Shown here one piece after another: positions 321 to 34,070 of a stretch of DNA of 34,070 nucleotides (position 1 is the stretch's first letter; each line of letters starts with the position of its first letter). The notes under the pieces were generated by a model. The model had not been told where the DNA came from. It saw nothing but the letters and a program-made list of their open reading frames with translations, and ran no database searches. The DNA is from a virus (lineage: Duplodnaviria > Heunggongvirae > Uroviricota > Caudoviricetes): positions 385,354 to 419,423 of the IMG/VR virus record IMGVR_UViG_3300021400_000141; one strand, written 5' to 3'. A program made the position numbers and the translations under genes.

Positions 321-416
321 TGTGGAGAGGTGGGCGGCTGGGGGACGCTGGGGCCCCAGGACAGGGGTGATAACCTAAGTTGGAAATCATTGGATGTAAA
401 ACTATATTTACATATA

Positions 417-450
417 TGAAAAGGGGGGAACGCCTGACGGCGCCCCCCTT
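417..450 (-). terminator. Intrinsic terminator after 475..1350
   Basis: AAGGGGGG..GCC-TGAC-GGC..CCCCCCTT stem, followed on the minus strand by TTTTCAT. Confidence 0.7.
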
Positions 451-474
451 TAAGGCATGATGAAAGAAAGGGTG

Positions 475-1350
475 TTATGCCACGAGTTCCCTATAAAGGG
501 ATTCTGTGATGTATCTAGGTGCTTTCAGTTTGTCCACCATATCGAAAGTTCTCTTGTTTGGGCGAAGGATACCGAATTCACCCGACTTGTAGAAATAGAG
601 CCAAGCGTCGAGGTTCATAAAGAACATAGCCACATAGGTTCTATTCTTGATGATTTCGTTCTCGGTGGCAATGGGGTCATTATCATCTACGAAGATACCA
701 TCGGGGGTAAAGAAGATTTTGTGACCATAGATAGAACGGGTTTCTCCCATGGTTATGAACTTGTTGGAAGCCCCTATGATAGTTTCCTTTGCAGCGGAGA
801 CTACCTTATTCCAGATAGAGTTCATATTGGTGGCAGAAACGATGTTCTTGCCGAACTTGTAGGAAGCCTGGTCTAATATCCATTTGGCGATAAGGATGGC
901 CTTTTTGGTAATGCATTCCCTAGACAGGATATGGGCGGTGAGGTTCAGGATAGAGAGCATATTGGCAATGCCTTCTACGAGGTAGCCCGACTTGGCACCT
1001 GTGAACTTATCGGAGATGTAGGCATCGTTCAGGTTCACATAGGGCGGGACGAACAGGTTGCCCTTATGGGATTCGATAGAGGCCCGTTCGATTTCCTTGA
1101 ATATGTCGATGTCATCGTGGTAAGAGGTGGCCACGAAATTAGCGACCCTGTATGCATCAAGGATATTGGGGTTATCCTGGTTTAGGATTTGATACACAAT
1201 GTTGCATACGGCCTGCAAGTTCTGCGTGGCGGTGCGGAGAGCATTGAGCGTGAGTTGCTCTTTGATGTAGGCCATTGCATCGGCACGGTCTTCAAGGAGC
1301 ATAGTTTTCACTGCGGTTTCGGGTTTGTTGATAGGGTTTGCTTTCATCAT
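475..1350 (-). CDS. Hypothetical protein, 291 aa
   Basis: Long ORF, GAGGAGG RBS, terminator downstream; upstream -10/TTTAATTA box present but -35 degenerate. Confidence 0.88.
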   Translation of the reverse strand: MMKANPINKPETAVKTMLLEDRADAMAYIKEQLTLNALRTATQNLQAVCNIVYQILNQDNPNILDAYRVANFVATSYHDDIDIFKEIERASIESHKGNLFVPPYVNLNDAYISDKFTGAKSGYLVEGIANMLSILNLTAHILSRECITKKAILIAKWILDQASYKFGKNIVSATNMNSIWNKVVSAAKETIIGASNKFITMGETRSIYGHKIFFTPDGIFVDDNDPIATENEIIKNRTYVAMFFMNLDAWLYFYKSGEFGILRPNKRTFDMVDKLKAPRYITESLYRELVA

Positions 1351-1451
1351 GGTGTTAGCCTCCTCTAGTATTAAATATACATAATTAAATACGGAAGCGG
1401 AGAAAAATCATAAAATTTTTTCACTTTTTTTGAAAAATTAAAAAATAAAAA

Positions 1452-1790
1452 TTATTTCAGTTTGCGGGCGACCCTTTCGAGGTAGTCGATAAAATAATGG
1501 TTTATCGCCTCGGAAGTTTTCAGAGGGATTGTAGCAGAGGTTGCCAACCTGATTGAGTTGTGGTTGGTCTTGTTGATGTAGGCTACGGTTCTCAACGAGG
1601 TGTCGATACAGAGGGGTTCGCCATCTGGTTCCAACGGGGCTATGACAATGCGTCTGCCCCTGCCTTCTTTTCGGACGATGGTTTCGGCCCTGTTGGCGAC
1701 CTGTTCGAAGTAGGTGGTTGAGCCATCGGTTTCCATCCTCTTTGCGGCATCGTTGAGTTGGGCGACGATGAAGTTGGGCGTTTCAATCAT
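1452..1790 (-). CDS. Hypothetical protein, 112 aa
   Basis: AGGAGG RBS, promoter at 1850-1878. Confidence 0.85.
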   Translation of the reverse strand: MIETPNFIVAQLNDAAKRMETDGSTTYFEQVANRAETIVRKEGRGRRIVIAPLEPDGEPLCIDTSLRTVAYINKTNHNSIRLATSATIPLKTSEAINHYFIDYLERVARKLK

Positions 1791-2033
1791 GTTGGTATCC
1801 TCCTTGTTTCAATCTGGGTTTCGAGCGGGGTTGCCAACCCCCATGATATAATATAGTTAATTAAATGGTAAATGTCAAGTTGAAAGTTGAGTAAAGTTTT
1901 GGTTACAGGAGATGGGGGAGAATCATATAGGGGGGGATACTCCGTGGGAGGCGAAGCTGGGACGGGGTGATAACGTAAGTTGGAGATTTTTTTGGGAAAA
2001 ACGAGAAAGGCCTGATGTTCAGACCTAGGGGGA

Positions 2034-2597
2034 TTAGTGGTTTGATTGGAAGTGGATGTGTTCGTTGGGTGTATACTGGCTTTCCCAAATCACCTTATAA
2101 TCCTTCGGGAGGGTTTGTTCGAGGATTCGGACCACTCTCCTTCGTTCATTGAGGGGGAGGTCATTCATTCTGATATCGACGGCTTGTCCATAGCGATGTT
2201 TGGACCATTTGTCATGTCTATCGAACGAGTCATGGGCGGAGGTGATGGTAGGGGAGAAGTCTTCACCGAGCTGGCTTTTGAACACTTTGATTACATATAC
2301 CAGGCCGCTTTCGAGCTGCGGGGTAAGCTCCATTACGACACCTGATTTCTGGAAAGTGTTTTCCATGATGTAATCATGGTTTTCACCTGATTGGACAGGG
2401 ACATCGTAGTTAAATTCTGCTTTTGACGGGTATGTATTGTATTCCCCATCATCAGCAGGATAAGTTGCATCTGTCCTGGCTTTCGGGTGTTCATCGGGAG
2501 TATATGGGTCGAAGATGAGCTTGACACCCACGATGAGCATGACGAGAATCATGCAGAGGGCAAGGCCGCATTTGAACAGATTAACTAGGCATCCCAT
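2034..2597 (-). CDS. Membrane-anchored M15-type (Hedgehog/DD-peptidase fold) zinc peptidase
   Basis: N-terminal hydrophobic helix; C-terminal ITS..S-K-H-x6-D (SKHRYGQAVD) and HIH motifs typical of M15 metallopeptidases; GGAGG RBS. Confidence 0.75.
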   Translation of the reverse strand: MGCLVNLFKCGLALCMILVMLIVGVKLIFDPYTPDEHPKARTDATYPADDGEYNTYPSKAEFNYDVPVQSGENHDYIMENTFQKSGVVMELTPQLESGLVYVIKVFKSQLGEDFSPTITSAHDSFDRHDKWSKHRYGQAVDIRMNDLPLNERRRVVRILEQTLPKDYKVIWESQYTPNEHIHFQSNH

Positions 2598-2621
2598 GGT
2601 GGACCTCCATTTGAATTAGGT

Positions 2622-2957
2622 TTAGATTTCTCTTGTTGCTGCCACTTTCCACGCGAGCAGGGTCGGGTAGAGCTTACGGGCTTCTTCCTTGGCCTTGGTG
2701 TCGTAGAGCTTGAAGTTGGCGATAACGAATTCAGCTTCATTCATGTCTTCGGCAGGGAGTTGGGAGAAGGGCTTGGCAGTAAGGGTCTTGAAGTTGCCAG
2801 GAACAGGAGATGCTTTGCAGCACTTGACAAACCAGATGTTGTCCTTGTTGTGGCAGGATTCGGGGGTTCCCTTACAGAATGTGTTGAACTGACTGATTGC
2901 CTGTGCTTTGGTGTTGGCAAGGACAATCCCGTTTACGACGATGATGCGCTTTTCCAT
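2622..2957 (-). CDS. Hypothetical protein, 111 aa
   Basis: AGGAGA RBS, promoter at 2987-3015. Confidence 0.85.
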   Translation of the reverse strand: MEKRIIVVNGIVLANTKAQAISQFNTFCKGTPESCHNKDNIWFVKCCKASPVPGNFKTLTAKPFSQLPAEDMNEAEFVIANFKLYDTKAKEEARKLYPTLLAWKVAATREI

Positions 2958-3038
2958 TGTGTTATCTCCTTGTTGTTTCTCCTATAAATATACCCAATTA
3001 AATGCTGGATGTCAATAGGAATTTGTGTAAAGTTTTGG

Positions 3039-3380
3039 TTACGGTTTGAGGTTGATGCTGAGGTTTGTGGTGAACTGTTTCTGTTCGAGTTTGAAGATGG
3101 TGGTATGGAACGTGGATGGAATCAGGTTGGCGCATTTGAGGTCCGCCGTGAGGAATTCCACCATGTTATTGATGGTGGCGGTATCGACGGTTTTGTTCTT
3201 GGGCGCTTTCCGTTTGAAGTTGATGATGAGGGTCAGGATGGCGTGGTTGACCTTGTGCTTGACCTTTCCGACGGAAAGGACGGTATCGCCGAACTTGGTC
3301 ATAAGGTCGTTTCTAACGAGGTTGCAGACCTTGTTGAAATCGATTGGTTCAATCCCTGTTGTTGCCTTGGTTGAAATCAT
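3039..3380 (-). CDS. Hypothetical basic protein, 113 aa
   Basis: AGGAGG RBS, follows 3396..3650. Confidence 0.82.
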   Translation of the reverse strand: MISTKATTGIEPIDFNKVCNLVRNDLMTKFGDTVLSVGKVKHKVNHAILTLIINFKRKAPKNKTVDTATINNMVEFLTADLKCANLIPSTFHTTIFKLEQKQFTTNLSINLKP

Positions 3381-3395
3381 GATGTTAACCTCCTT

Positions 3396-3650
3396 TTATG
3401 CGTTTAACTTGTAGACATGGGTAGCGGAGTAGGTATCGTCGCCAGTGGGTTCGCCGAACGGCATTTGCCGAACCTGGGTAAAGCCGTTGTGTTCCATCAC
3501 GTATTTGAGGTAGAGGTGGTCATGCTTCCAGTCGCCCCAGTGTACATCGACGGTGACTTCGCCATTCGGGCGGATACCATATTCGTAGTGCAGGTCATTG
3601 TCCTTGAAGACCTTTGCTACTTTCAGTTCGATTTCAATTGGGTATGCCAT
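3396..3650 (-). CDS. Hypothetical protein, 84 aa
   Basis: AAGGA RBS, consistent codon usage. Confidence 0.82.
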   Translation of the reverse strand: MAYPIEIELKVAKVFKDNDLHYEYGIRPNGEVTVDVHWGDWKHDHLYLKYVMEHNGFTQVRQMPFGEPTGDDTYSATHVYKLNA

Positions 3651-3741
3651 TGTTTAATCCTTGGTTGAAGTGGTGGAGAAAGGGAGGGGGCTAGCGGTGT
3701 GTGGGGTAAGTGTCAAGTTTCGCTACCCCCTCCCACAGTTA

Positions 3742-4191
3742 TTAGATGTTCCTGGTTCCTGCGAGAGATGTGATGTTGTTGATAGCATCCCGTGCTGACA
3801 TAGTTGCCTTGAACAGGTCGAAGTACATATCGATGAGTTGGGGCATATTATCATCGCACATCTCTATGACATGGCCGAGGACAATCTTTCGCTTGTCACA
3901 GACCCCAATGGAGAGTTTGCCAATGTAGTATTCGGTGATGAAGAGTTGCACGCCATTGTAGTCAGTCAAGGTGAATTCAGTTCGGTTACCGTAGTCTTCA
4001 AGCTCGTTGATTTCCATCTTGATAGAATAGATTCCCTTTCGAATGATATTCAACTGATGCTTGATTTCATCCGTGACAGTGATTCTGCGGAACAGAAGTT
4101 TCTTGGTGTCATGACGGAAATCATCAATCTGTGTGGAGAATTCGGACAGGAACTTTTCATTCCATTCTTTCAGCGTGAGTTTCTTTGCCAT
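3742..4191 (-). CDS. Hypothetical protein, 149 aa
   Basis: AGGAGA RBS. Confidence 0.85.
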   Translation of the reverse strand: MAKKLTLKEWNEKFLSEFSTQIDDFRHDTKKLLFRRITVTDEIKHQLNIIRKGIYSIKMEINELEDYGNRTEFTLTDYNGVQLFITEYYIGKLSIGVCDKRKIVLGHVIEMCDDNMPQLIDMYFDLFKATMSARDAINNITSLAGTRNI

Positions 4192-4282
4192 GGTTATGTC
4201 TCCTAAAAAATCGAAAAATTTTTGTTTACAGAAAAAATATAGAAAATTAAAAATAAAAGTGGGTCAGAAAAAATGTAAAATT

Positions 4283-4657
4283 TTATTTCCATTCACGGAT
4301 TTTGTAGAAGTTGATTGTGTTTTCGAAGGCCTCTGTGATTCGGCTGTTCTCAACCTTGTCGAACCTAGGCTGTCCGAGATGGTAGAGGCACAGTGCGTTG
4401 CCCCAGAGGCCATCAACGATGAGGGGGCCATAGGTTTCCCAGCACTTGCGGTAGACTGCTTCGTCATTGCCACGGCCTTCCCAACGGCCTTTGTCGTTCA
4501 GCCATGCTTCCACCTGTGTCTTAACGTCGTTCTTGTCGAAGGTTTCAATCAGGATGCTGTCGCTACGTCTGGCAAGCTCGTTGATAAGGTCCTCTGTGGG
4601 AACCCCGCGAAGCGTGTGCGGCTTGTTAGGAACATGGATGTAAACAGGTCTTTTCAT
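4283..4657 (-). CDS. Hypothetical protein, 124 aa
   Basis: AGGAGG RBS, promoter at 4691-4719. Confidence 0.85.
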   Translation of the reverse strand: MKRPVYIHVPNKPHTLRGVPTEDLINELARRSDSILIETFDKNDVKTQVEAWLNDKGRWEGRGNDEAVYRKCWETYGPLIVDGLWGNALCLYHLGQPRFDKVENSRITEAFENTINFYKIREWK

Positions 4658-4897
4658 TTGGTTGCCTCCTGGGCTTGTTCTTCTGTTTTAAATATACCTA
4701 ATTAAAACCTGGGTGTCAAGATGTTGTGGCAACTTTTTGTGTAAAAAATAGTTTACAACCTTCCAGCGGTTCCTGCTGGCGAAGGGGGCTAGGGTGATAA
4801 CCCAAGTTGGAAATCTTTTTGGGAAAAAAGAAAACCCCCGATGGGCTAGAAACAACGGAGTCGCCATGGCAACAAACGCCCATCGGGGGAGGAGGAA

Positions 4898-5395: not shown

Positions 5396-5398
5396 GGT

Positions 5399-5986: not shown

Positions 5987-6081
5987 GATTGACTCCTTTT
6001 GTTGTTTCTGTTGATAATATAGATAATTAAAATCTTTTTGTCAAGAGAAAAAATGAAAATTATTTTTTACAGTTTCTCCCA

Positions 6082-6558: not shown

Positions 6559-6563
6559 AATTT

Positions 6564-7052
6564 TTAGTCCTCGTCTTCACCATCATCGCAGCCCCATCCC
6601 TGATTTCTGTCATCAAGGGCGATACCCGCCTGTTCATACTTCATGGGGTGTTCTGTGATTTTCATGGGGTACTTCAAGATTTCGGGGGAGTTGTAGTTTC
6701 CATCCTGATAGGGGGAAACATTCGGGTCTTCGGGGGTGTAATACTTTTCGATAGCGTTGCTACGAGCCTGTTGAACCATGTCGCTGTTCTTGGGCTTGTA
6801 CCCTTCGGGAAGCAAGCCGTTCCACTTGGCGAGTTCCTCGTAGGCATCGTGCTTCTTTCCCTGTTCGTCAAAGAAGTTGCCGTAGCCATCGTATTCACGA
6901 CCCCTAATGGTGTTGTCCACAAAGAAGTAGCCACCGCCAAATTCCTTGGGGATAAGAAGATATGCCTTTGTGGTGCATTTCCTTTGCGGTTCGATTCCCC
7001 TGTCGAGTAGTGCGTTGCCTGTGTCAGAACATTTCCATGAAAACTGTCCCAT
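6564..7052 (-). CDS. Hypothetical protein (MGxFSW...YDGYG motif), 162 aa
   Basis: AGGAGA RBS, promoter 7086-7114. Confidence 0.87.
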   Translation of the reverse strand: MGQFSWKCSDTGNALLDRGIEPQRKCTTKAYLLIPKEFGGGYFFVDNTIRGREYDGYGNFFDEQGKKHDAYEELAKWNGLLPEGYKPKNSDMVQQARSNAIEKYYTPEDPNVSPYQDGNYNSPEILKYPMKITEHPMKYEQAGIALDDRNQGWGCDDGEDED

Positions 7053-7232
7053 GATTGTCTCCTTTGTTGTTGTTTCTATGATATAAATATACCTAATTAA
7101 AATGGGATTGTCAATAGGGTTTCCAACATTTTTGTGTAAATTTTCATTTACAAACTTCTGGTGGAAACCGTGGTGACGGCGGGATGAAGGCGCCGGGGTG
7201 ATAACCCAAGTTGAAAATTCAGGTGATGTAAA

Positions 7233-7252
7233 CGGAAACCCCCTTTCGGGGG
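7233..7252 (-). terminator. Intrinsic terminator
   Basis: CCCCC-TTTC-GGGGG at 7239-7252 with T-rich tail on the minus strand. Confidence 0.75.
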
Positions 7253-7265
7253 ATAGGACTATGGG

Positions 7266-7903: not shown

Positions 7904-8110
7904 AATGAACTCCTTTGTTGTTGTTTCTATGTTATAAATATACCTAATTAAAACAGGGTTGTCAATAGGGTTTCCAACATTTTTGTGTAAATTTTGATTT
8001 ACAAACTTCTGGCGGAGACCGAGTGGGACAGCTGCAGTCGAGGCTAGGGTGATAACCCAAGTTGGAAATCTTGTTGAAACAAAGTTAAACCCCCGTGAGG
8101 GGGGAGTTGA

Positions 8111-8749: not shown

Positions 8750-9004
8750 CTAAACAGCCTTGTAAAGGTCGATGTAGTTGTCGCATCCATCGAGGTTCTT
8801 ACGGTCGATGGACTTCTTTACATACCACTTTTGCTTGCCAACCATAACAGGGCGGCAACCCTTGATGGGAGCATAGTCAGGGTCATTGGAAGACAGAGAT
8901 GCTCCTAACCCTTTCTTGAAATGCTTTACGATTTGCTTGGCATCCTTGTCCATCAGTTCCTTGATGTCTTCGGGGTCATTGTAGTAAGCGATGTGCTGAA
9001 CCAT
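8750..9004 (-). CDS. Hypothetical protein, 84 aa
   Basis: AGGAGA RBS, promoter 9034-9062. Confidence 0.85.
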   Translation of the reverse strand: MVQHIAYYNDPEDIKELMDKDAKQIVKHFKKGLGASLSSNDPDYAPIKGCRPVMVGKQKWYVKKSIDRKNLDGCDNYIDLYKAV

Positions 9005-9223
9005 AATGTTGTCTCCTATGTTTCTATGTTATAAATATACCTAATTAAATCGCTGTTGTCAATACCTTTTCCAACTTTTTTGTGTAAATTTTGATTTACA
9101 AACTTCTGGTGGAGACCGTGGGGACAGCAGCAGTCGAGACTAGGGTGATAACCCAAGTTGGAAATCCAGAGGTGAACAAGAAAAAGCCCACCCATTCGGG
9201 TGAGGCTCGGAGACAAGGGAAAC

Positions 9224-9529
9224 TTACTTGAAGAAATCAGCAGGGACGGTATGCTTCACGATGTCGAACTCTACACAATCGTCGGCATCGTTATAGGCGG
9301 AGATACAGTAGCCGTCCATGCAGTCCTTTGATGTCACCTTTTCATTTTCGAGGTTTTCCTGTTCGATGTAGTCGTTTACTTCGCTGGCAATGAACTTGGC
9401 GGCCTTCTGTTTTTTCTTGAACACATCCGTGTAGCGGTTGTTGTTGATTTCACCGCCTATACGAGCGTAGGCGACGACGGTAAAGAATGTGATGTTCTTG
9501 GCCTTGGGTGTTTTGGTTTTGGTAGTCAT
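9224..9529 (-). CDS. Small protein, 101 aa (internal paralog family); start corrected to MTTKTK
   Basis: AGGAGA RBS before ATG at 9529; the longer ORF-track start overlaps the upstream gene. Confidence 0.83.
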   Translation of the reverse strand: MTTKTKTPKAKNITFFTVVAYARIGGEINNNRYTDVFKKKQKAAKFIASEVNDYIEQENLENEKVTSKDCMDGYCISAYNDADDCVEFDIVKHTVPADFFK

Positions 9530-10176: not shown

Positions 10177-10252
10177 GGTTGCCTCCTTTGTTTCTATAAA
10201 TAATATAGATAATTAAATATAAAAAGTCAATCAGTTTTGTGTAAAGTTTTCG

Positions 10253-10576: not shown

Positions 10577-10794
10577 AGGTAAACTCCTTTGTTTCTATAC
10601 TCTAAATATACCTAATTAAAACGGATTTGTCAATAGGGTTTCCAACTTTTTGTGTAAATTTTCATATACAAACTGGTCGGAGACCGCGTTGGGACTGGCG
10701 GCCCCCAGTCAAGGGGTGATAACCCAAGTTGGAAATCTGGTGGAAACAAGGGAAAACCCCACCCTTTCGGGTGAGGTTCGGAGACAAGGGAAAC

Positions 10795-11262
10795 TTACTT
10801 GTTAGGGTCAGCCATTGCAAACTTGTGGAGAAAGTTCCTTGATGCTTTGTTGCAGGGGAACGGCTTGCGTTTTCCGTTCCTGTCTTGCAAGAAGCACTTT
10901 ACTGGAACATCGACCCAAACACTCAAATTGGGTTCGTAGGGGTCATTTTTAGTTCCTTTACCAAGCACTTCATAGAAGCACGCACCCAGAGCAGTTTTTG
11001 CCGTGCCGTACAAGGAAGAATCCATAAGGTTCAAGTCGAACATCTGTCCGTCAACCTTACCGCTGTGCCAAGTGTCTTCAAGGTCAGGATATGCGCCTAT
11101 TTTTTCGGCTATTTCAGGGTTCCACTTAATTGTTTTCTGATTTGGACGAACAATCTCGTAGAAATACCTGTCCTTTCGCCCACGTGTCTTTATGACATGG
11201 AGTTCAGCCCACTTGAATACTTTTGCAAGCAGGGCAATAGTAGGATTAGGTTCTGTTGCCAT
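10795..11262 (-). CDS. Hypothetical protein, 155 aa
   Basis: GGGGGA RBS; terminator downstream. Confidence 0.85.
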   Translation of the reverse strand: MATEPNPTIALLAKVFKWAELHVIKTRGRKDRYFYEIVRPNQKTIKWNPEIAEKIGAYPDLEDTWHSGKVDGQMFDLNLMDSSLYGTAKTALGACFYEVLGKGTKNDPYEPNLSVWVDVPVKCFLQDRNGKRKPFPCNKASRNFLHKFAMADPNK

Positions 11263-12562: not shown

Positions 12563-12765
12563 GGTGTTGTCTCCTGTTTTATATCCTAAATATACATAAT
12601 TAAATTTGGGTTGTCAATACCTTTTCCAACTTTTTTGTGTAAATTTTCATTTACAATCTATGGGCGGAAACCGTCGGGGACGACTGCAGTCTGAACCAGG
12701 GTGATAACCCAAGTTGAAAATCAAAAAATAAAAAATAAAAAATGCCCCCAATGAGGGGGCGACCA

Positions 12766-13476: not shown

Positions 13477-13675
13477 AAATAACTCCGTTGTTATAACAAT
13501 AATATAGATAATTAAATTGGTTTAGTCAATGGGTTTTACCTATTTTTTGTGTAAAGTTTTCTATACACTGTTATCACCAGAGCCTCCGCCTGCGGCGAAG
13601 CTGGAAAAGGGTGATAACCCAAGTTGAAAATCTGGTGAAAACAAAGTTAAAACCCCTCTTAATCGAGGGGTGGTG

Positions 13676-14863: not shown

Positions 14864-15106
14864 AATGTCTCTCCGTTGTTAAGGTTTCTATATCTATAAT
14901 ATACTTAATTAAAATGGGTTTGTCAATAAGTTTTAATAAATTTTTTTGTAAAGAATTAGATACAAACTGGGGTTAAACTGACGTTAGAACCCCTGATGAC
15001 GACGCACGCGGGCCCCGTTAAAAGGGTGATAACCCAAGTTGAAAATCAAAAAATAAAAAATAAAAAATCCCCCTCTTTCGAGGGGGTCAGGAGTTGGGCG
15101 AATGAG

Positions 15107-15961: not shown

Positions 15962-16140
15962 AATAAATCTCCGTTGTTAAGGTTTGTTGTTTCTATGTAT
16001 ATAATATAGATAATTAAAATAGGTTTGTCAATAGGTTTTACCCATTTTTTATGTAAAGTTTTCATTACAATGTTATCGGCAGAGCCTCCGCCTGCGGCGA
16101 AGCTGGAAAAGGGTGATAACCCAAGTTGAAAATCTTGTTT

Positions 16141-16171
16141 AAACAAGGATAAACCCCCTCTTGCGAGGGGG
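16141..16171 (-). terminator. Intrinsic terminator, CCCCCTC-TTGC-GAGGGGG family
   Basis: Stem 16154-16171; same hairpin at 16754-16771, 21690-21707, 24048-24063, 28643-28659, 31327-31344, and with inverted loop at 32968-32985; GCAA tetraloop on the transcript. Confidence 0.85.
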
Positions 16172-16188: not shown

Positions 16189-16563
16189 TCAAGCTTGATT
16201 TTCTTTTTTGTATTCCGCAATCTTCTTTACGAACCTGATAGCATTTCGCTTGCTCTTGAAGAACAAGTCGGTAAGGCACTTGATGTCGTCATCGTCATAC
16301 TTGGCAGGATAGCAACGCAGGAACATCCCACTTTGCCCAGCAACGGAAACTGCTAAGTCCATAAAGTCATATTCGGGAACATCTAGGGTAGACGCAGTGT
16401 CCTCGGTACACAGGCATTCGCATCCATTAAGGGTGAAACAGACAGTCCATCCAGTCTTCCACTTGCAGGTATCTTTTGAAAGAGACTCCTCTACAACCCC
16501 GACAGGACACTTGCCGTGCCCGCTATCAATATCCATAATGTATATAGGCTTTTGCTTACGCAT
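16189..16563 (-). CDS. Hypothetical protein, 124 aa
   Basis: AGGAG RBS; promoter 16597-16625. Confidence 0.86.
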   Translation of the reverse strand: MRKQKPIYIMDIDSGHGKCPVGVVEESLSKDTCKWKTGWTVCFTLNGCECLCTEDTASTLDVPEYDFMDLAVSVAGQSGMFLRCYPAKYDDDDIKCLTDLFFKSKRNAIRFVKKIAEYKKENQA

Positions 16564-16794
16564 TGGTTAAACTCCTTTCGTTGTTTCTATGTATATAATA
16601 TACCTAATTAAAATGGTTTTGTCAATAGGTTTTAACAGATTTTGTGTAAAGAATTAGATACAAACAAGGGTTTAAACCCCTGGGTGTGGCAGCGGCAGAA
16701 GGTCAGGGGGGTGATAACCCAAGTTGAAAATCTTGTTTAAACCAAAGTTAAAACCCCCTCTTGCGAGGGGGCTACGGAGTTTATGGACACAAAA

Positions 16795-17448: not shown

Positions 17449-17704
17449 AATGAACTCCTTTTGTTTCTATGTATAATATACCTAATTAAATTGGTTTTGT
17501 CAATAGGTTTCCAACATTTTTTGTGTAAAGTTTCTATTACAATCGAGGAAGGAGACCGTCGGGACAGCTGCAGTCTGAACACGGGTGATAACCCAAGTTG
17601 AAGATTCGGTTGAGACAAAATAAAAGCCGTGTGGAAAAGTGTTGTGGCTAGGCTGTGTTATGGCCTAATTTTCCACACGGCAGGGGGCAGGGAGACCCCC
17701 ATTT

Positions 17705-18492: not shown

Positions 18493-18723
18493 ATATTCCT
18501 CCGTTGTTAAGTTTTGTTGTTTCTATGTATATAATATACCTAATTAAATTCTGTTTGTCAATAGATTTAATAAAAATTTTTTGTAAACTTTTTGATACAG
18601 ACTGGGCGGAAACTGTGAAGGAGTCGAGCCAAGCTGGAACGGGGTGATAACCCAAGTTGGAAATCTCGATGGCAACAAGGGAAAGCCCCACCCTTTCGGA
18701 TGAGGCTTGGAGACAAGGGAAAC

Positions 18724-19203
18724 TTACCCGTAGCAGGAGAAACGCTGGTCTTTGTCAATGTTTCCGTATTTCTTTTGGAACTCTAAGGCTTTCTTTGTGA
18801 GTTTCTTCGGAACCCAAACATCGCTGTAATTGATTTCCCAATACCATTCGCCACTGTCGAGGTCATCATAGCAGTCGCCGTCGCCAGTGAAGTAAATTAA
18901 ATTGACGGTCATTCCTGTCTTTTCCTTAAAGGCTTCCTTGACCTTATCGTAGGCTTCACGAACCTTGACCCAATTTTCATCTTCTGGGTCGAAGCCACAG
19001 CAGCCATCGTTGAAGCCATCGCCGCCATCATTGAGGGCATCGCTCATATCGGCTTCACCGTAGGTGTCACCGTCGCTGTCTCCCTTTTCCTTGAACGTGT
19101 CAAACTTTTTCTTGAAAGCGTTGAACAACTTTGCTCCAACCACTTTCTTGACGATTTTTTCTTCCACAATTTGGTGGTAAGATTCGATGTTTCCCATTGA
19201 CAT
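18724..19203 (-). CDS. Acidic D/G-rich hypothetical protein, 159 aa
   Basis: AGGAG RBS; promoter 19244-19272. Confidence 0.87.
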   Translation of the reverse strand: MSMGNIESYHQIVEEKIVKKVVGAKLFNAFKKKFDTFKEKGDSDGDTYGEADMSDALNDGGDGFNDGCCGFDPEDENWVKVREAYDKVKEAFKEKTGMTVNLIYFTGDGDCYDDLDSGEWYWEINYSDVWVPKKLTKKALEFQKKYGNIDKDQRFSCYG

Positions 19204-19441
19204 AGTAAACTCCTTTGTTTTGGTTTGTTGTTTCTATGTATATAATATACCTAATTAAATTGGTTTTGTCAATGGGTTATAAACACTTTTTGTGTAAAGT
19301 TTCGTTTACACCGTACACACAGAACCAACCGGCAGTTGCACCGGGTTTCCAGCTGCGGAGGGTGATAACCCAAGTTGAAAATCCTGTTGACACAGAAAGA
19401 AAACCCCCCAATTGGGGGGCCATCGGCAGTATGACCCAGGA

Positions 19442-20374: not shown

Positions 20375-20595
20375 AATGTATCTCCTTGTTTGGATGTTTT
20401 TTGTTGTTTGTGTTAATTACGTAATTAAATATAACTAATTGGATTTGGTTTGTCAAGAGGTAAACCGAATTTATTTTAACTTTTTTCCATCACCAGCGTC
20501 GTCCTGCGGCGAAGGCGGAAAGGGTGATAACCCAAGTTGGAAATCTCGTTGAAACAAAGTTAAAACCCCGCCCAAAAGGGCAGGGCTGTATATGA

Positions 20596-21526: not shown

Positions 21527-21725
21527 AGGTTTACCTCGTTTGTTTATATCTATAATATACTTAATTAAATCTAATTTGTCAATAGTTTTTATAAAAAAAT
21601 TTTCTCGACCGACGAGATGACCCCGGGTCGATTCCAGCGGCAAGGGGTGATAACCCAAGTTGAAATCAAAAATAAAAAATAAAAAATAACCCCCTCTTGC
21701 GAGGGGGGCAGGGAGTTGGCACAAA

Positions 21726-22223
21726 CTATTCGTGTTTTTCCACTTTGAGGATAACCCATTCTTCCTTGCTGTCTTTCGTGGCAGGGATAATTTCGATTGC
21801 TCTTGCTTTTGCTTTCGTCTCCGCTTCCTTTTCGCTTGTGGCAATGATTTCCATTTGCAGGGCAGCACCAGAGAGGTCTCGATGCGTCAATTCCACTTCA
21901 AACTTGACGCTTGCATTTTCAGTTTCATACTGATACTTTTCAAGCACACAGTTCTCTATGTGCTCACGCAATGCCCTCGTGATAGGGAACACGGTGGAAC
22001 GGAGGTCTTCTCCCTTGTAGAACGGGTCATTGGGGTAGCCAACAAACATACCATACTCACCGTCCATAATACGAAGACCCCTGATAGTAAGTTGGTCATT
22101 CAGAACCACCGTTGCAAGCCCAAGAATGTTGCCACATCTTGCACCATCACGGAAAGGGTAAACCTGAACAGATGTGACGGACAGACATTCAAATCCGTTT
22201 TCTGCTTTCTTTTTTGTAGCCAT
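21726..22223 (-). CDS. spoVG: SpoVG family nucleic-acid-binding protein with ~70-aa C-terminal extension
   Basis: VTSVQVYP...LGLATVVLNDQLTIRGLRIMDGEYGMFVGYP...FPITRALREHIENCVLEKY is the SpoVG signature. Confidence 0.9.
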   Translation of the reverse strand: MATKKKAENGFECLSVTSVQVYPFRDGARCGNILGLATVVLNDQLTIRGLRIMDGEYGMFVGYPNDPFYKGEDLRSTVFPITRALREHIENCVLEKYQYETENASVKFEVELTHRDLSGAALQMEIIATSEKEAETKAKARAIEIIPATKDSKEEWVILKVEKHE

Positions 22224-22318
22224 ATTTAACCTCGCTTGTTTGTTGTTTCTATATTAAATATAGTTAATTAAATTCAGTTTGTCAATAGGGTTTAACCATT
22301 TTTTGTGTAAAGACTGGT

Positions 22319-22738: not shown

Positions 22739-22966
22739 AGATTTACCTCATTGTTTGATTTCTATATGAATAATATAGATTATTAAATCGGTTTTGTCAA
22801 TAGGGTTTTAACCATTTTTGTGTAAAGAATTAGATACAAACATTGGGTTAAACCCAGTCGTCAGACCCCTGTTTGGGACGACTGTTTCCAGGCCAGGGGT
22901 GATAACCCAAGTTGGAAATCTCGTTGAAACAAAGTTAAAGCCCCTGTCGGGGCTATGGTGAAATCA

Positions 22967-23558: not shown

Positions 23559-23864
23559 CTACCTCACCTCGTTGAACTTGTTAAGCACCACCGCTTCGAT
23601 GTAGGAACGCAAGTCGTCTCTCGACGGGGCAACCACGCTTCGTGCATCCTCACCCTTGTAGAAAGGGTCAAGCGGGTAAGCCACGAACAGACCATTCGGC
23701 CCGTCCATAATACGCAAGCCACGAACAACGATAGCATCGTTGAGCGTAATCGTCGCCAAGCCCTTTGTATACATCAGCGTTTTAGTTTCCTTGAACGGAA
23801 ACACCAGAACTTGTGTTACCTTGATACCGCAATTCGGTTCAATCTCTTGATACTTGTCTGCCAT
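23559..23864 (-). CDS. spoVG: SpoVG family protein, 101 aa
   Basis: IKVTQVLVFP...KGLATITLNDAIVVRGLRIMDGPNGLFVAYP...YIEAVVLNKF. Confidence 0.9.
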   Translation of the reverse strand: MADKYQEIEPNCGIKVTQVLVFPFKETKTLMYTKGLATITLNDAIVVRGLRIMDGPNGLFVAYPLDPFYKGEDARSVVAPSRDDLRSYIEAVVLNKFNEVR

Positions 23865-24072
23865 AGTAAACCTCGCTTGTTTGTTTCTATGTTATAAATA
23901 TAGTTAATTAAATTCAGTTTGTCAATAGGATTTTAAAAAATTTCTGTAAAGTTTTCGACACAATGTTATCGGCAGAGCCTCCGCCTGGAAGCGAAGGAAC
24001 AGGGGTGATAACCCAAGTTGAAAATCGAAAAATAAAAAATAAAAAATCCCCTCTTGCGAGGGGGAAAATTCG

Positions 24073-24861: not shown

Positions 24862-25092
24862 AGGTCATTCTCCGTTGTTGATGTTTCTATGTTATAAATA
24901 TAGATAATTAAATTCAGTTTGTCAATAGTTTTTTAAAAATTTTTATTAAAAAATCTACTGCCACTCCTGTCGTCAAATCCCTGTTGGGACTGCTGGGCCC
25001 CGTTAAGGGGGTGATAACCCAAGTTGAAAATCATGTGGCAACCTGTTAAAACCCCCTTTCGGGGGCAGTTATAACAGGCGGTTGGCAGTAGC

Positions 25093-25451: not shown

Positions 25452-25671
25452 AAGGTGTCTCCATTGTTAATGTTTCTATATCTATAATATACCTAATTAA
25501 ATCTAGTTTGTCAATAGGGGTTATCAACTTTTTGTGTAAACTTTGTTTAACAACCCGATGTCCAATCGAGGGCGGAAGCAGAGCTCCTCGACTCCAGGAC
25601 ATCGCAGGGTGATAACCCAAGTTGGATATCCAGCCCTGCCAAAAAGAAATGCCCCTTTCGGGGCGGTTATG

Positions 25672-26375: not shown

Positions 26376-26600
26376 TTTAGACCTCGTTGTTTGTTGTTTC
26401 TATGCCTATAATATACCTAATTAAATCTAGTTTGTCAATAGGTCATAGCAATTTTTGTGTAAAGTTTTGTAAACTGATGTCAATTCGAGAACCCAACCGT
26501 GGGGATTCGAGTCGGTGACATCTGGGGTGATAACCCAAGTTGAAACCCAAGTGCGGACAAATGGAAACCCCCTCTGGTGAGGGGGCGGTGATTAAAGATT

Positions 26601-26993: not shown

Positions 26994-27215
26994 AATATAC
27001 CTCGTTGTTTATGGTTGTTGCTTCTATTATAAATATAGTTAATTAAATCTAGTTTGTCAATACCTAATTAAAAATTTTTTCTCACGGTGAAATCGGGGTC
27101 AGCACTCGTGCTCCCGGGACTTCCTGCTCGCAATGGGTGATAACCCAAGTTGAACATCGGGTGCAACACGAGAATAACCCCCCACCCTTTCGGGCAGGGG
27201 GTTAACAACGAGGGG

Positions 27216-27737: not shown

Positions 27738-27936
27738 AGTTAAACCTCCGTTGTTTGTATATATAATATAGATAATTAAATTCAGTTTGTCAATAGGTTA
27801 TAACATTTTTTGTGTAAAGTTTTAGAAACAAGGTGAATGAAACAGAGAGCATCGACGCCGCCCGTGCCAGGGGTGATAACCCAAGTTGAACATCTGGGGT
27901 GAGCCAAAAGAAAACCCCTCATTCGAGGGGCGAGGT

Positions 27937-28200: not shown

Positions 28201-28202
28201 AG

Positions 28203-28463: not shown

Positions 28464-28684
28464 AGTTTTACCTCGTTGTTTGTTTCTATATTAAATATAC
28501 ATAATTAAATCTAGTTTGTCAATAGGTCATAACTATTTTTGTGTAAAGTTTTTAGAAACAGAGTGTGGAAGTCTGGGGATTCGAGCGATTCTGGCACGGG
28601 GTGATAACCCAAGTTGGAACTCCCGTGGAAACAGAAAGAAAGCCCCCTCTTGCGAGGGGACTTAGGAGTTGTATGACACAAAAA

Positions 28685-29083: not shown

Positions 29084-29439
29084 ATTTACTTCTCCGTTGT
29101 GTTGTTTTCGTTGTATTATAAATATACCTAATTAAATCTAGTTTGTCAAGCCCTATCCAGAAAAAAATATAATCACGGTGAACATCGAGTTGCTCCCGGG
29201 TGCTTCCAGGCGGGGGGTGATAACCCAAGTTGGAAATTTGTTCTAAACCGTTTGAAACCCCAGTAAAGAGAAGGAGTTCGAGGAGGTGGCACCAGGAAAC
29301 ATCTCGAAGAATACCACGAGCCACTCACAGTTCCCGGAGCTTCCCAGCGGCGGATAGGTGATAACCCAAGTTGAAGATTGTTTGAAACACGAGAAGAAAC
29401 CCCATCCATGCGGATGGGGCTAGCAACGAGGTAGGTATG

Positions 29440-29706: not shown

Positions 29707-29961
29707 TGTTTTATCCTCCGTTGTATTGTTTAACTATTATAAATATACCTAATTAAATCTAGTTTGTCAAGCCCCCTTGATAAAAAATTCTGTCGCAGCC
29801 ATTCAGAAGAACATCGCGTTGGGACAGCTGCAGTCAGGACATGGGTGATAACCCAAGTTGAAATCAGGGTGGACATCAGAAGAAAACCCTCGTCGTTCGA
29901 CGAGGGCTGTAATGCGGAAAGTGTAGGGGTGTTTGAGTCTTGGTTAATACCGCATTACCTT

Positions 29962-30297: not shown

Positions 30298-30544
30298 TGT
30301 TATACCTCGTTGTTTGTTGTTTCTATATATAATATAGTTAATTAAATTCAGTTTGTCAAGTGTTTTCTTCAACATTTTTACATCTCGGCAGCACGGATTA
30401 TCCTCGACGCTGCTCCAGTGCATGGGTGATAACCCAAGTTGAAGAACTGGTGGAGCGTAAAAAAGAACCCCGCCGTTCGGCGGGGGGAGTAGTGTAGTAT
30501 CGCAGTTTAGGGAGTTGATAGTTTCGTTTAACCGCACCACTCTT

Positions 30545-31159
30545 TTACACGAATTTGTCAAAGCAATTCTTTACTTTTTCAATTCCGTTTTTTACACTTT
30601 CCAAATACTTGTTAAACAAGATTTCAGAGACCAAATAGGCGTGACCCAATTTATCCCAGTGCTTTTTATACTTTGCTTTGCAACCGAATGTTTCAACGTC
30701 AGCAGCCGAATAGAGAATAGTATCATCATTGCTATTCTTATCAAACGTGAACCAAATATATCCACAGGTGGAATAACGGCAACCGCTTACCTTATTGCGA
30801 ATAATAAGGCGGTTAATATCAGAAGAGGAGAACATTTGCGACTTCTTATTGTATTTAGCATTAGACCGCTTGAACAATTCCTTATGGATAATTGCGTAAG
30901 TGATATAACTCTTTGAGCAATCATCAGCGGACAGGTTATCTTGCTTACAATAGACAATTTCGTAGTCCTTACCCAAAGTCTCACGAACCATTTTGTCAAT
31001 AGCCGAAAGTTCGTTGTCGGTAAAGTCCGTTTCAATCAGTTCGTTTCCACGGATTTGAGAAAAGGACATAGGGATTTGTCTTGCTTTTGTCCGTTCGGCC
31101 TCATAATCCTTTTTGATTTGGGCTTCTCTTTTGTGTGTGTATTCTATGATATGTGCCAT
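30545..31159 (-). CDS. Hypothetical protein, 204 aa; start corrected to MAHIIEY
   Basis: GGAG RBS; promoter 31193-31221. Confidence 0.85.
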   Translation of the reverse strand: MAHIIEYTHKREAQIKKDYEAERTKARQIPMSFSQIRGNELIETDFTDNELSAIDKMVRETLGKDYEIVYCKQDNLSADDCSKSYITYAIIHKELFKRSNAKYNKKSQMFSSSDINRLIIRNKVSGCRYSTCGYIWFTFDKNSNDDTILYSAADVETFGCKAKYKKHWDKLGHAYLVSEILFNKYLESVKNGIEKVKNCFDKFV

Positions 31160-31371
31160 AGTAAAACTCCGTTGTTTTGTGTTCCTATATATAATATAGA
31201 TAATTAAATCTAGTTTGTCAAGTAGTTTGTTCAACTTTTTTCCTGACCGCCCTGACGACCGACGAAGGCTGCAGTCAGGGCATGGGTGATAACCCATGTT
31301 GAACATCGGGCTGAAACAAAGTTTAACCCCCTCTTGCGAGGGGGCTTTGTCGTCAGCGGCTAGCCGACGAA

Positions 31372-31707
31372 TTAGGCGGTCAATGTTTCAATGTGGTAAG
31401 CAATGAGTTTTGCCATCTTGCGTTCAGGAAGAACAGGTATGTCAATGTGAGCCTTGCGGATAGTCAGCGTGGCATAGGGCTTGCGGTGGTTATCCAAGCC
31501 GTAGGTCAAGGTGGCATCGCTATGCGACCACTTTGTTCCAGTCTTGCGAGAGTGTTCGGGCTTGAACACACTTTCAACAGAGCGAGGAATAACATCGCTC
31601 TTCTGCTTTGCTCTTGTGCCGTAGCCGAACTCAAAGACGAGGTAGCACAGAACATTCTTGATGTGGTTGTTGAACTTGTTGAACTTGTTGTTGGTGTTGT
31701 TGTCCAT
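31372..31707 (-). CDS. Hypothetical basic protein, 111 aa
   Basis: GGAGA RBS; promoter 31752-31780. Confidence 0.84.
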   Translation of the reverse strand: MDNNTNNKFNKFNNHIKNVLCYLVFEFGYGTRAKQKSDVIPRSVESVFKPEHSRKTGTKWSHSDATLTYGLDNHRKPYATLTIRKAHIDIPVLPERKMAKLIAYHIETLTA

Positions 31708-31952
31708 AGTTGTCTCCGTTGTTATGGATTGTTTGTTGTTTCTATGTCTTTAATATAGTTAATTAAATTCGGTTTGTCAATAGGTAGCACAAAAAAATTT
31801 GTAACATTTTATCAACATATTATACCCATTCGACAGCCAACTGCTTCCGCCCGCGTGCGAAGGCGGCATGGGTGATAACCCAAGTTGAACATCGGGGGGA
31901 GCGTAAAGAAATGCCCCCGTTTGATAGGGGGCGGTTGACAGGGAGCAAAAAG

Positions 31953-32318
31953 TTAATCCCACCAATCGGGCTTCGGGTCAGACGATTTTTCAAGGGCTTC
32001 GCTCAACTTCATTCCGACAGGGATACTAATGTCTCTTTCAACTGCGGGGCAACCGAACTGTTTGAGACCCTGCAACTCCTTCAAGTTAATGTCGCCATAC
32101 TCGCTGAAATCGGGGTTTGAGTTGTTCACCACATAGCCGTAAACAACGTCCTCGCTATCCTCGTAGCCTTCAAGGATATACCACGTCAATGCGTGGCTGA
32201 ACGGACAGAACAGACGGCAGGCGACCTTTGCTTCGCCTTTCAGTCCGTCTTGCGAACCGCTAGGGTGCTTCTTCAAGAACTTCTTGATTTCTGCTGTGAT
32301 GAGTTTTTGCTGTGCCAT
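31953..32318 (-). CDS. DUF2958 family protein, 121 aa
   Basis: KLITAEI...SQDG...VACRLFCP...TWYILE...EYGDINLKEL...VERD matches the DUF2958 pattern. Confidence 0.82.
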   Translation of the reverse strand: MAQQKLITAEIKKFLKKHPSGSQDGLKGEAKVACRLFCPFSHALTWYILEGYEDSEDVVYGYVVNNSNPDFSEYGDINLKELQGLKQFGCPAVERDISIPVGMKLSEALEKSSDPKPDWWD

Positions 32319-32542
32319 ATTATTACCTCGTTGTTTGTTGTTTCTATATATAATATAGTTAATTCATTTAAGTTTGTCAATAGGGGAGTTGAAAATAGTT
32401 GTAAAGTTTCGTAAACACAATACGAAGAACCAGAGAGCCTCCTGGTGCTCACGGGCAATAGGTGATAACCTAAGTTGAACCCTCTGGGGAAGCCAAAGAG
32501 AAGCCCCCTTGTAGGGGGCGGTGTAAGCAGGTAGGTGGCCTA

Positions 32543-32773
32543 TCAGTCCACCTCGGCATCGCCTAGTTCGCCAAGCCGATACTCCCCTTGTTCATCGCAG
32601 AACAAGCCGTAGCGAACATCATCAAGCATACCGCTTGCTTTCTCCACCAAGTCGGGCAACTCCGCTATGGGAAAATCCCAATGGTTTGCGTCAGTCGGGT
32701 CAATCAAGCAGGCATTCGCCACGATTTCATCAAAGCGTTCCTTGCTAATGCTTTCAATGATTATTCTAGCCAT
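32543..32773 (-). CDS. Small acidic protein, 76 aa
   Basis: GAGG RBS; promoter 32799-32827. Confidence 0.84.
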   Translation of the reverse strand: MARIIIESISKERFDEIVANACLIDPTDANHWDFPIAELPDLVEKASGMLDDVRYGLFCDEQGEYRLGELGDAEVD

Positions 32774-33005
32774 AGTTTACCTCGCTGTTATACTATATAA
32801 TATACCTAATTAAATCTAGTTTGTCAAGTGCTTTTACCAACTTTTTATGTAAAGTCTAGTTTACACACTAGGGTTTAAACCCTGTCGTCAGACCCCTGTT
32901 TGGGACGGCGGCCCACAGACCAGGGGTGATAACCCAAGTTGAACCGACGACCAAGCCCAAAAGAAAACCCCCTCGCAAGAGGGGGCAGGAGCAGGACAAC
33001 AATTC

Positions 33006-33185
33006 TTACGCCGCCTTTTTCTTAAAGCAGGAAGCACATATCCAACCGCCAGAGATTTCCTTGTAGTAGGTTTTCTTACCGCACCCTTGACACCTATGCT
33101 TCTTATCCCAAGCCTTTTGGTCAAAGTCCTTACTGCGTTCAAACGAAGGCTCCATTGCCACCTTAGGTATCTCTATCCTATCCAT
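33006..33185 (-). CDS. 59-aa zinc-finger protein (absent from ORF track): MDRIEIPKVAMEPSFERSKDFDQKAWDKKHRCQGCGKKTYYKEISGGWICASCFKKKAA
   Basis: Translated by hand; AGGGGG RBS; CQGC...CASC; terminator immediately downstream. Confidence 0.78.
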   Translation of the reverse strand: MDRIEIPKVAMEPSFERSKDFDQKAWDKKHRCQGCGKKTYYKEISGGWICASCFKKKAA

Positions 33186-33197
33186 TCAGCCAACCCC

Positions 33198-33380
33198 CTA
33201 TTCAAACGAACCGCACTCGGTCATCAAATTGGTAATCAAGTGTGCTTGATAAGGGAAGTTATACCCACCCACCGCAACACTCTTGTCGCCAATAAAGGCA
33301 CAGAGAACACCACATTCCTTTTTCAGTTCAAGACGGCTATCAACCTTTTGGCATTCAGCCACAAATTCATTCAGACCCAT
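33198..33380 (-). CDS. Hypothetical protein, 60 aa
   Basis: AGGTAGG RBS; promoter 33413-33441. Confidence 0.8.
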   Translation of the reverse strand: MGLNEFVAECQKVDSRLELKKECGVLCAFIGDKSVAVGGYNFPYQAHLITNLMTECGSFE

Positions 33381-33614
33381 ATTAACCTACCTTGTTTAAG
33401 GGTTCTATATTATATATAGATAATTAAATCCATTTTGTCAACCCATTCCACAAACTTTCGTGTAAACCTTTCGTTACAAACCCCGCCCTAACGAAAGGCC
33501 TCGACGCACGGTGCCAGCGTGCCAAGGGTGATAACCCATGTTGAACATCGGGAGGGGCGACAAAAAAGGGGGTTGCAACTGATGTTGCAACCCCCACAAC
33601 GGAAGTAAGTAAAC

Positions 33615-33992
33615 TTATCTGATTTTAGGAATAAGATTTTCCAAATCGCTGATGGAACTGAAATTGTTTGTGCCACCATGACTATCCTTGATGCTATTCG
33701 CAGTGCGTATCAACACGCCACGCATCGGCCCGCTTGCGTTCACATCAATGGTCATTCCTCGGAAGTCACCATAGTTGTAATAGACAATCTGCCCATCGGC
33801 TCGCTGAATGTAGCCGTAAACATAGTAGTGACCCGTCTTTTGAACCAAAACCTTTGCCCCAATCTTCTTGCACACCCTTTTCATAAGGTTGTGGAACGAA
33901 TGAGCCAAACTCATTCCCATAGAACCTCTGGGCATCGTAGTTCCACTCTCGTTAAAGAAAACACCCTGCCATTTCTTCTTGAATGTCTGCAT
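33615..33992 (-). CDS. Hypothetical protein, 125 aa; start corrected to MQTFKKK
   Basis: GAGG RBS; promoter 34020-34048; GHY..GY...D.R...LIRTA..KD..GGTNNF motif. Confidence 0.85.
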   Translation of the reverse strand: MQTFKKKWQGVFFNESGTTMPRGSMGMSLAHSFHNLMKRVCKKIGAKVLVQKTGHYYVYGYIQRADGQIVYYNYGDFRGMTIDVNASGPMRGVLIRTANSIKDSHGGTNNFSSISDLENLIPKIR

Positions 33993-34070
33993 TGTTTTAA
34001 CCTCGTTGTTGATACCTTTAATATACCTAATTAAAAGCATCTTGTCAAGCCCTAGCCATCATTTTCTTTG

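Follow-up and report, generated by a model that had tools for sequence, protein, structure and literature searches.

The window analysed here is the last 34 kb (34,070 nucleotides) of the 419,423-bp viral record IMGVR_UViG_3300021400_000141, whose ends overlap by 107 bp and whose assembly is circularly closed, and it is largely occupied by an array of small transcription units set apart by copies of one 18-base sequence (hereafter the 18-mer). A search of the window with GGGTGATAACCCAAGTTG, allowing up to two mismatches, gave 34 matches between positions 365 and 33526, all on the plus strand, of which 28 are exact, four carry one mismatch and two carry two; from 100 shuffles of the window, no match is expected. 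None of the copies lies within a credible gene, in agreement with an earlier sequence-only reading of this DNA that had described 34 co-oriented copies outside genes. Because the open reading frames that begin with ATG behind a GGAG site follow one another along the minus strand, the 18-mer should be read in the direction of transcription, as CAACTTGGGTTATCACCC. A scan of the full contig, which that reading had proposed, carried the array beyond the window: the complete genome holds 41 copies, 41 of 41 on one strand and all intergenic, in a single block of ~38 kb that runs from genome position 385718 to the end and, across the assembly junction, through 1-4444, whereas the remaining ~380 kb and the opposite strand are free of it. 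No other long word of the genome is as over-represented as the 18-mer, and the array amounts to ~40 units in ~38 kb of a rumen megaphage that is probably lytic.

Read along the minus strand, the units repeat one order of parts, in which a hairpin with a T-tract is followed by a T-rich linker of ~25 nt that ends in GATTTY, the 18-mer, a spacer of 50-116 nt that is variable in sequence and relatively GC-rich (mean 54%), often a TTTACACAAAAA tract, a very conserved, near-consensus sigma70-type promoter (TTGACA-N17-TATATT), and a short leader with GGAG as ribosome-binding site ahead of one to four small, mostly orphan genes. In the window this promoter follows 32 of the 34 copies at 51-97 nt from the end of the 18-mer, so that 32 of 34 units carry their own promoter at 11/12 consensus; nearly all copies are preceded by a GC-rich hairpin and T-tract, and nearly all units close with a terminator. 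A neutral scanner placed 14 of 14 promoters at 11/12 consensus and all promoters and terminators on the minus strand. The smallest unit measures 141 bp and the largest 2.8 kb, and a second, internal promoter is present in four of them. The sequence-only reading had anticipated this anatomy, with a promoter for each unit, the repeat just past the preceding terminator hairpin and a few units holding two promoters, and on each of these points it was borne out.

Across 155 copies from five phage genomes, the 18-mer is phased to the terminator and not to the promoter, which we count in favour of the interpretation developed below. The gap between hairpin and 18-mer measures 22-27 nt in 119 of 148 copies, with a mode of 25, and this length is kept although linker sequences vary between copies, whereas the distance separating 18-mer and -35 hexamer varies between 37 and 116 nt. 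The four internal promoters, which lie directly behind a gene with no terminator between, lack an 18-mer, as do ~25 promoters of the same class elsewhere in the genome, which lie directly against the upstream gene or within the loop of a terminator hairpin. Since promoters without a preceding terminator, or outside the array, are without the 18-mer, the array-specific insert, composed of linker, 18-mer and spacer, is coupled to the terminator and not to the promoter. At genome positions 359961, 362148, 364531 and 374483 (plus strand, outside the window), the -35 of a same-class promoter lies inside the loop of a GC-rich hairpin whose T-tract serves as the promoter spacer (e.g. CCCGC-TTGACAAG-GCGGG-TTTAATT...TATATT), forming an overlapping terminator/promoter element.

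In a profile of 156 copies from five genomes, 16 of the 18 positions are at least 95% invariant and the two tolerant positions alternate between T/A and G/A, respectively. A weaker GATTTY extension on the 5' side yields the 24-mer form GATTTTCAACTTGGGTTATCACCC, and at the 3' edge conservation drops from ~2 bits to <0.5 bit within one base. Equivalent arrays are present in IMG/VR contigs of 422, 279, 175, 32 and 13 kb, which hold 47, at least 22, 39, 28 and 8 copies, respectively, on one strand per record save for one weak match with three mismatches. The same array is common to seven related phage lineages, the deeper of which were reached by a search seeded with a conserved 291-aa protein encoded at the array end, and in lineages 55-57% identical in this protein the 18-mers are letter-perfect and the full unit anatomy is kept. 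In one relative, G001, the variants CCAA, CTAA, CCAT and CTAT are grouped by position. Because the edges of the 18-mer are sharp and its sequence is invariant across lineages, these data argue for direct purifying selection for sequence-specific recognition and not for mere homogenisation.

Among 596 Gb of bacterial genomes, the motif occurs only as chance singletons or in bins evidently containing this phage (two bins of metagenome-assembled genomes), and a host operator was rejected because no bacterial genome is enriched in it. In a sheep-reticulum 'Bacteroidaceae' metagenome-assembled genome, contigs of 101 kb (with the array) and 317 kb carry the motif (JAFXNA010000009.1 and JAFXNA010000004.1) and together probably represent this megaphage, and a human-gut 'Alistipes' bin holds a 10-kb piece. 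Strong Shine-Dalgarno sites and TTGACA/TATATT promoters argue against a Bacteroidota host, and binning may mislead. Megablast against a phage collection, in which the genome itself was possibly masked, returned no match, a literature search for the 18-mer motif returned none either, and a look-up of related records found no look-alike arrays. Other identities were considered and rejected: ARAGORN found no tRNA-like or T-loop-like spacer on the relevant strand even at relaxed thresholds, Rfam gave no match to a known RNA family at E <= 1, the 18-mer is unrelated to the clustered regularly interspaced short palindromic repeat (CRISPR) of this phage, GTTTCCCGTGT.TGCGGGAATTGAAA, and an antisense sigma70 promoter using the TTGAAA at the 18-mer end was predicted at only 3 of 14 copies.

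Comparison of the related phages bore out the proposal that units are gained, lost and replaced in a variable array, with a common backbone order on which arrays differ by unit indels, by replacements and by swaps of single genes. The sequence-only reading had gone further and taken the repeat for an integron-like recombination boundary at which breakpoints should fall, and this the alignments do not support. With genes paired by protein orthology, adjacency was lost in 13 of 56 pairs across an 18-mer (23%) versus 11 of 38 pairs within units (29%; Fisher p 0.63). Ends of DNA homology blocks were most enriched at stop codons (5.4-fold), were 2.8-fold enriched at start codons, and were enriched 2.3- to 3.1-fold over terminator, linker, 18-mer and spacer alike. 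Among 17 clean indels, not all of them independent, junction homology includes the 18-mer in five, and the other 12 have their junctions in the promoter or untranslated region or at gene boundaries; overall, junctions are spread over linker plus 18-mer, promoter plus untranslated region, terminator and gene ends. The sub-segments of the module are all mosaic and are common to non-orthologous units, linkage over the 18-mer is not below that at other places, and single genes change units with no 18-mer at the junction.

The proposed check for recombinase genes was negative as well: the tyrosine recombinase family PF00589 is absent from the complete 419-kb genome in a search whose controls respond, as are the serine recombinase family PF00239 and the HUH family PF01797. 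An attC-like fold was not found in the 18-mer plus spacer, for which mean z-scores are -0.8 to -0.9 and 12-17% of copies fall below -2, and a structured RNA or DNA in the spacer was rejected on these values; likewise, an inverted-repeat pair (terminal inverted repeats or attC-like) was rejected as a defining feature, a degenerate inverted copy of the 18-mer being present in just 14% of spacers. Collectively, these comparisons indicate that units and single genes shuffle by ordinary homologous or illegitimate recombination with no dedicated site-specific system, and the view that this plasticity matches that of the promoter/stem-loop (PeSL) cassettes of T4-type phages is supported. Indel breakpoints are unrelated to the repeat, an outcome under which the sequence-only reading itself had allowed for no more than a regulatory or structural site. 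For cassette-like phage arrays in general, the repeat pattern alone is insufficient for an integron-like reading.

The array genes are mostly orphans, and the families that could be recognised are SSB, DUF932, DUF2958, DUF1281 and SpoVG. The sequence-only reading had pictured a host-takeover and anti-defence arsenal; these families are compatible with an early region of that kind, in which anti-defence would be a putative function. The two SpoVG-family proteins, whose fold binds nucleic acids, are the sole recognisable nucleic-acid binders among the array proteins. Upstream, the array end encodes SSB and a MoxR-like AAA ATPase (L161:4967-5482 and L161:3101-4363, minus strand), which together with DUF932, DUF2958 and DUF1281_C in the window recall the gene set of leading regions of conjugative plasmids. 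Three units (at ~4400 and ~2280 in L161, those of the AAA ATPase and of the next gene, and at ~7100 in the G001 array) have no TTGACA promoter and carry a conserved CCCCCTATATTAAGGGGTGTCCCAAGGCG...GGAG leader after the 18-mer, which may be another promoter or a structure in the 5' untranslated region. Gene-less tandem units, each consisting of an 18-mer plus 75-125 nt, occur five in a row in G001 (6632-7059) and once in the window (29215-29373) and look like decayed or collapsed cassettes. At window positions 9160-9225, 10731-10800 and 18659-18730, one and the same sequence between stop codon and terminator (TAAGTTTCCCTTGTCTCC...CCTCACCCGAAAGGGTGGGG) follows unrelated genes, and the homology ends at the stop codon, consistent with crossovers at gene ends. 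Elsewhere in the genome, 36 tRNA genes are clustered at 300239-310163 with two more at 347 kb and 372 kb, and the word ACATTATAAACTAT occurs six times outside the array (138944-263765), where it may signal late or middle genes. Coordinates of the window features are collected in the table.

Table. Positions of the 18-mer copies, an example unit and neighbouring features in the window.
Feature	Position	Strand	Remark
Cassette array, window part	365..34070	-	33 inter-repeat units; continues into genome 1-4444
18-mer, 1 mismatch	33526..33543	-	CAACATGGGTTATCACCC
18-mer, exact	32924..32941	-	
18-mer, 2 mismatches	32460..32477	-	
18-mer, exact	31870..31887	-	
18-mer, 1 mismatch	31284..31301	-	
18-mer, exact	30424..30441	-	
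18-mer, exact	29843..29860	-	
18-mer, 1 mismatch	29356..29373	-	Opens gene-less, promoterless 141-bp unit
18-mer, exact	29215..29232	-	No terminator hairpin directly upstream
18-mer, exact	28599..28616	-	
18-mer, exact	27871..27888	-	
18-mer, exact	27135..27152	-	
18-mer, exact	26525..26542	-	
18-mer, exact	25607..25624	-	
18-mer, exact	25009..25026	-	
18-mer, exact	24003..24020	-	
18-mer, exact	22897..22914	-	Degenerate inverted copy GGGTTTAACCCAATGTTTG in its spacer
18-mer, exact	21645..21662	-	
18-mer, exact	20522..20539	-	
18-mer, exact	19360..19377	-	
18-mer, exact	18642..18659	-	
18-mer, exact	17583..17600	-	
18-mer, exact	16709..16726	-	Opens example unit
18-mer, exact	16111..16128	-	Opens unit after example unit
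18-mer, exact	15024..15041	-	
18-mer, exact	13609..13626	-	
18-mer, exact	12699..12716	-	
18-mer, exact	10714..10731	-	
18-mer, exact	9143..9160	-	
18-mer, exact	8047..8064	-	
18-mer, exact	7196..7213	-	
18-mer, exact	4792..4809	-	
18-mer, 2 mismatches	1965..1982	-	
Last 18-mer, 1 mismatch	365..382	-	Followed by iteron region, no promoter
Example unit, GC-rich variable spacer	16626..16708	-	18-mer to -35
Example unit, sigma70-type promoter	16597..16625	-	TTGACA-N17-TATATT, 11/12 consensus
Example unit, sole orphan gene	16189..16563	-	124 aa; GGAG ribosome-binding site
Example unit, intrinsic terminator	16154..16171	-	Hairpin CCCCCTCGCAAGAGGGGG plus T-tract
Example unit, T-rich linker	16129..16153	-	25 nt, ends GATTTT; 22-27 nt in 80% of 148 copies
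Internal promoter	22257..22285	-	No terminator before, no 18-mer
Further internal promoters	10202-10230, 6016-6044, 2987-3015		
SpoVG-family gene, first of two	21726..22223	-	Speculative candidate 18-mer partner
SpoVG-family gene, second	23559..23864	-	
Conserved 291-aa protein	475..1350	-	Flanks iteron region in every lineage
Conserved non-coding (iteron) region, window part	1..364	.	~900 bp overall, on to genome ~384,950 (L162:6950-7401; genome ~384,950-385,717)

Five lineages share a conserved non-coding region beyond the last 18-mer copy, which holds opposed TATCAACA/TGTTGATA boxes, four to eight phased GTTTCAAC iterons, opposed GTTGAAA iterons, an inward-facing promoter-like sequence, AT-rich repeats (AAAATAATTTTTGATTTT) and near-DnaA-box words (TTATCAACA). 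These features make it a candidate origin or other nucleoprotein site, and the GC-skew extremes of the genome are not located there, so that skew places neither origin nor terminus in this region. The iteron run itself contains degenerate 18-mer copies, one of them at ~207-228 of the window, and the extended motif aTTTTCAAC-tt-GGGTTATCAC reads as an iteron and a TTATCAAC-type box spaced by one helical turn. The iteron regions of four lineages contain 43 same-orientation occurrences of 7-mers from this extended motif, against 2.1 +/- 3.8 for shuffled motifs (P ~0.001). The structure model of the 291-aa protein is confident (pLDDT 88.6), shows no Rep-like fold and has no match in the PDB or in AFDB clusters, which lends no support to a Rep-like initiator as its identity.

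What the 18-mer does can be approached through several explanations that share parts of this evidence. Were it the site of an integron-like system, a recombinase would cut at the 18-mer and units would be excised as circles and re-inserted, which would suit a site that is long, asymmetric, co-oriented and present once per unit, as well as whole-unit indels whose junction homology ends exactly at the 18-mer (e.g. G000 8991-9040 versus G003), the 7 of 68 replaced segments that start immediately after it, the existence of gene-less tandem units and the few spacers with a degenerate inverted copy. Against this stand the missing tyrosine, serine and HUH families, the lack of an attC-like hairpin together with weak fold z-scores, the scarcity of the inverted copy, adjacency breaks that are as frequent within units, the 12 of 17 indel junctions that lie elsewhere and the single genes that move with no 18-mer at the junction, and we give such a system very little credence. 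The length and invariance of the 18-mer are also typical of promoters for single-subunit RNA polymerases, and the genome has one sigma70-family gene, so that the site could act, in whole or in part, as the promoter of an alternative sigma or of an RNA polymerase that the phage encodes or carries in its virion, serving a second mode of transcription. This too is highly improbable: PF00940, PF00623 and PF00562 are absent from the genome and no DxDGD occurs in any frame (the PF00940 search having no positive control), the motif is missing from the 380 kb outside the array, which would likewise have to offer promoters to such a polymerase or sigma, no conserved initiation region follows the 18-mer, and the site is phased to the upstream terminator and not to the downstream gene.

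A third possibility dispenses with a dedicated reader altogether and regards the 18-mer as the best-kept core of the repeated scaffold, a recombination substrate made uniform by gene conversion or by exchange among co-infecting relatives. The mosaic module sub-segments common to non-orthologous units would follow from it, and the clustering of the four sequence variants by position in G001 is what local conversion predicts, but conversion would homogenise the flanks as well, and instead conservation collapses within one base of the 3' edge, the motif is identical across lineages at 55% protein identity, and linker length is kept without conservation of linker sequence, all of which leaves this explanation very unlikely. 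The main alternative to the interpretation that we favour is a site for replication or DNA processing, be it an initiator iteron acting in titration or handcuffing, a polar fork barrier, or a strand-specific nick or priming site. In its favour are the words shared with the iterons, the degenerate copies inside the iteron run, the placement of all copies on one side of an origin-like region in one orientation and a mean spacing of ~0.9 kb; strand-specific long nick motifs exist in other phages. Nonetheless, a site that is strictly intergenic and keeps a constant distance from the preceding terminator is suggestive of transcription and not of replication, an initiator, relaxase or nickase was not found, and the origin assignment is itself inferred, with the GC-skew extremes elsewhere, so that we consider a replication site unlikely.

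The interpretation that we tentatively prefer, at somewhat less than an even chance, is that the array is a PeSL-type early region shuffled by general recombination in which the 18-mer is a stoperator-like protein site marking the unit boundaries. The array would be the early, hyperplastic region of a rumen megaphage lineage, in which host RNA polymerase reads each unit from its near-consensus sigma70-type promoter to its intrinsic terminator, and crossovers may occur at gene ends and at any point of the repeated regulatory scaffold, in the manner of PeSL cassettes. The 18-mer would be an asymmetric recognition site for a putative sequence-specific DNA-binding protein, made of two half-sites, TTTCAAC and GGGTTATCAC, that lie one helical turn apart and resemble the box types of the iteron region. 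Judging from the known footprint of RNA polymerase, a site ~25 nt past the hairpin would stand just ahead of a polymerase positioned on the terminator U-tract, where a bound protein might reinforce termination, insulate units from one another or shut the whole array off together. We propose this stoperator-like boundary role because the offset from the terminator is fixed and all copies are co-oriented with transcription; a link to replication through an iteron-binding factor is also possible. Several observations weigh against the proposal. No binding protein has been identified, the HTH_3 (PF01381), ParB_N and NusG families are absent from the genome, and no helix-turn-helix family was recognised among the Pfam-type families of the array proteins, where divergent proteins are possible. 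A roadblock between a good terminator and a strong private promoter has no obvious benefit, and no copy overlaps a promoter, as a true repressor system would need, the nearest 18-mer ending at least 37 nt upstream of the -35 hexamer. The terminator phasing could reflect common descent of a module of terminator plus 18-mer, the likeness between 18-mer and iterons rests on words of 7-9 nt, the 291-aa protein has no structural match, and Pfam and Atlas were uninformative for the small genes downstream of the iterons. There is, in addition, a small chance that the 18-mer either docks a phage protein that ties the iteron region to all unit boundaries or serves a novel nickase or recombinase as its target in cassette mobilisation.

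Large phages store their fast-evolving early genes in arrays of promoter-terminator cassettes and exchange them there, many of these genes probably serving anti-defence or host takeover, and in the present lineage the module has a third element that is more conserved than the genes and than the proteins of the same genomes. If the docking reading is true, the 18-mer would represent a new type of dispersed, orientation-dependent boundary element that reinforces terminators and switches ~40 host-takeover operons together. Were it a protein-bound boundary or a global switch, it would offer a handle on ~40 strong operons at once and a compact, orientation-dependent insulator part for synthetic biology.

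Among known systems, integron attC arrays likewise string co-oriented small accessory genes between copies of a recurrent site, but the megaphage has no IntI (PF00589), no folded imperfect palindrome of the attC kind (57-141 nt with RYYYAAC/GTTRRRY ends) and no site-specific breakpoints, and its units carry their own promoter and terminator where integron cassettes are promoterless and rely on a common Pc. The pdif/Xer modules, with 28-bp XerC-6-XerD sites in alternating orientation, differ in that all 41 copies here share one orientation and show no 11-6-11 dyad. Iterons of the P1 oriR/incA type are asymmetric, ~19 bp long and built of two half-sites, with extra copies outside the origin. The 18-mer resembles such plasmid and phage origin iterons in its asymmetric two-half-site layout and in the words common to the neighbouring iteron cluster, and departs from them in that its copies are dispersed over 38 kb at transcription-unit boundaries and no initiator gene was recognised.

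Stoperators are asymmetric sites between genes that are oriented according to the direction of transcription, an orientation on which their function depends, and that are bound by a monomer with two DNA-binding domains (PMC9283540). As in the Cluster A mycobacteriophages (L5 gp71/TipsytheTRex repressor), many asymmetric copies lie in short intergenic spaces, here with 41 of 41 intergenic and co-oriented with transcription, and a layout of two half-sites would suit a monomeric protein with a pair of DNA-binding domains. Unlike stoperators, the site measures 18-24 bp instead of 13 bp, is confined to one 38-kb block instead of spreading genome-wide and always stands after a terminator and ahead of a private promoter; there is no operator copy overlapping a promoter, and neither a repressor homologue nor an integrase was found in this probably lytic phage. 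PeSL elements are composite terminator-promoter modules at which homologous recombination occurs at varied points with no dedicated recombinase (PMC2839356, PMC4122927), and of the analogues named in the sequence-only reading this is the right one. Here, as in T4-type phages, a terminator stem-loop and a strong sigma70-type promoter are repeated between small, mostly orphan genes of a hyperplastic region, insertions, deletions and replacements distinguish relatives, the crossovers lying at various places in the module, and no dedicated recombinase was found. The present array belongs to an unrelated phage lineage, is larger in scale with its ~40 units in 38 kb, and places between terminator and promoter an invariant 18-mer and a GC-rich spacer of 50-116 nt for which no PeSL counterpart has been described. 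Overall, the 18-mer is a real and strongly selected addition to a PeSL-type module.

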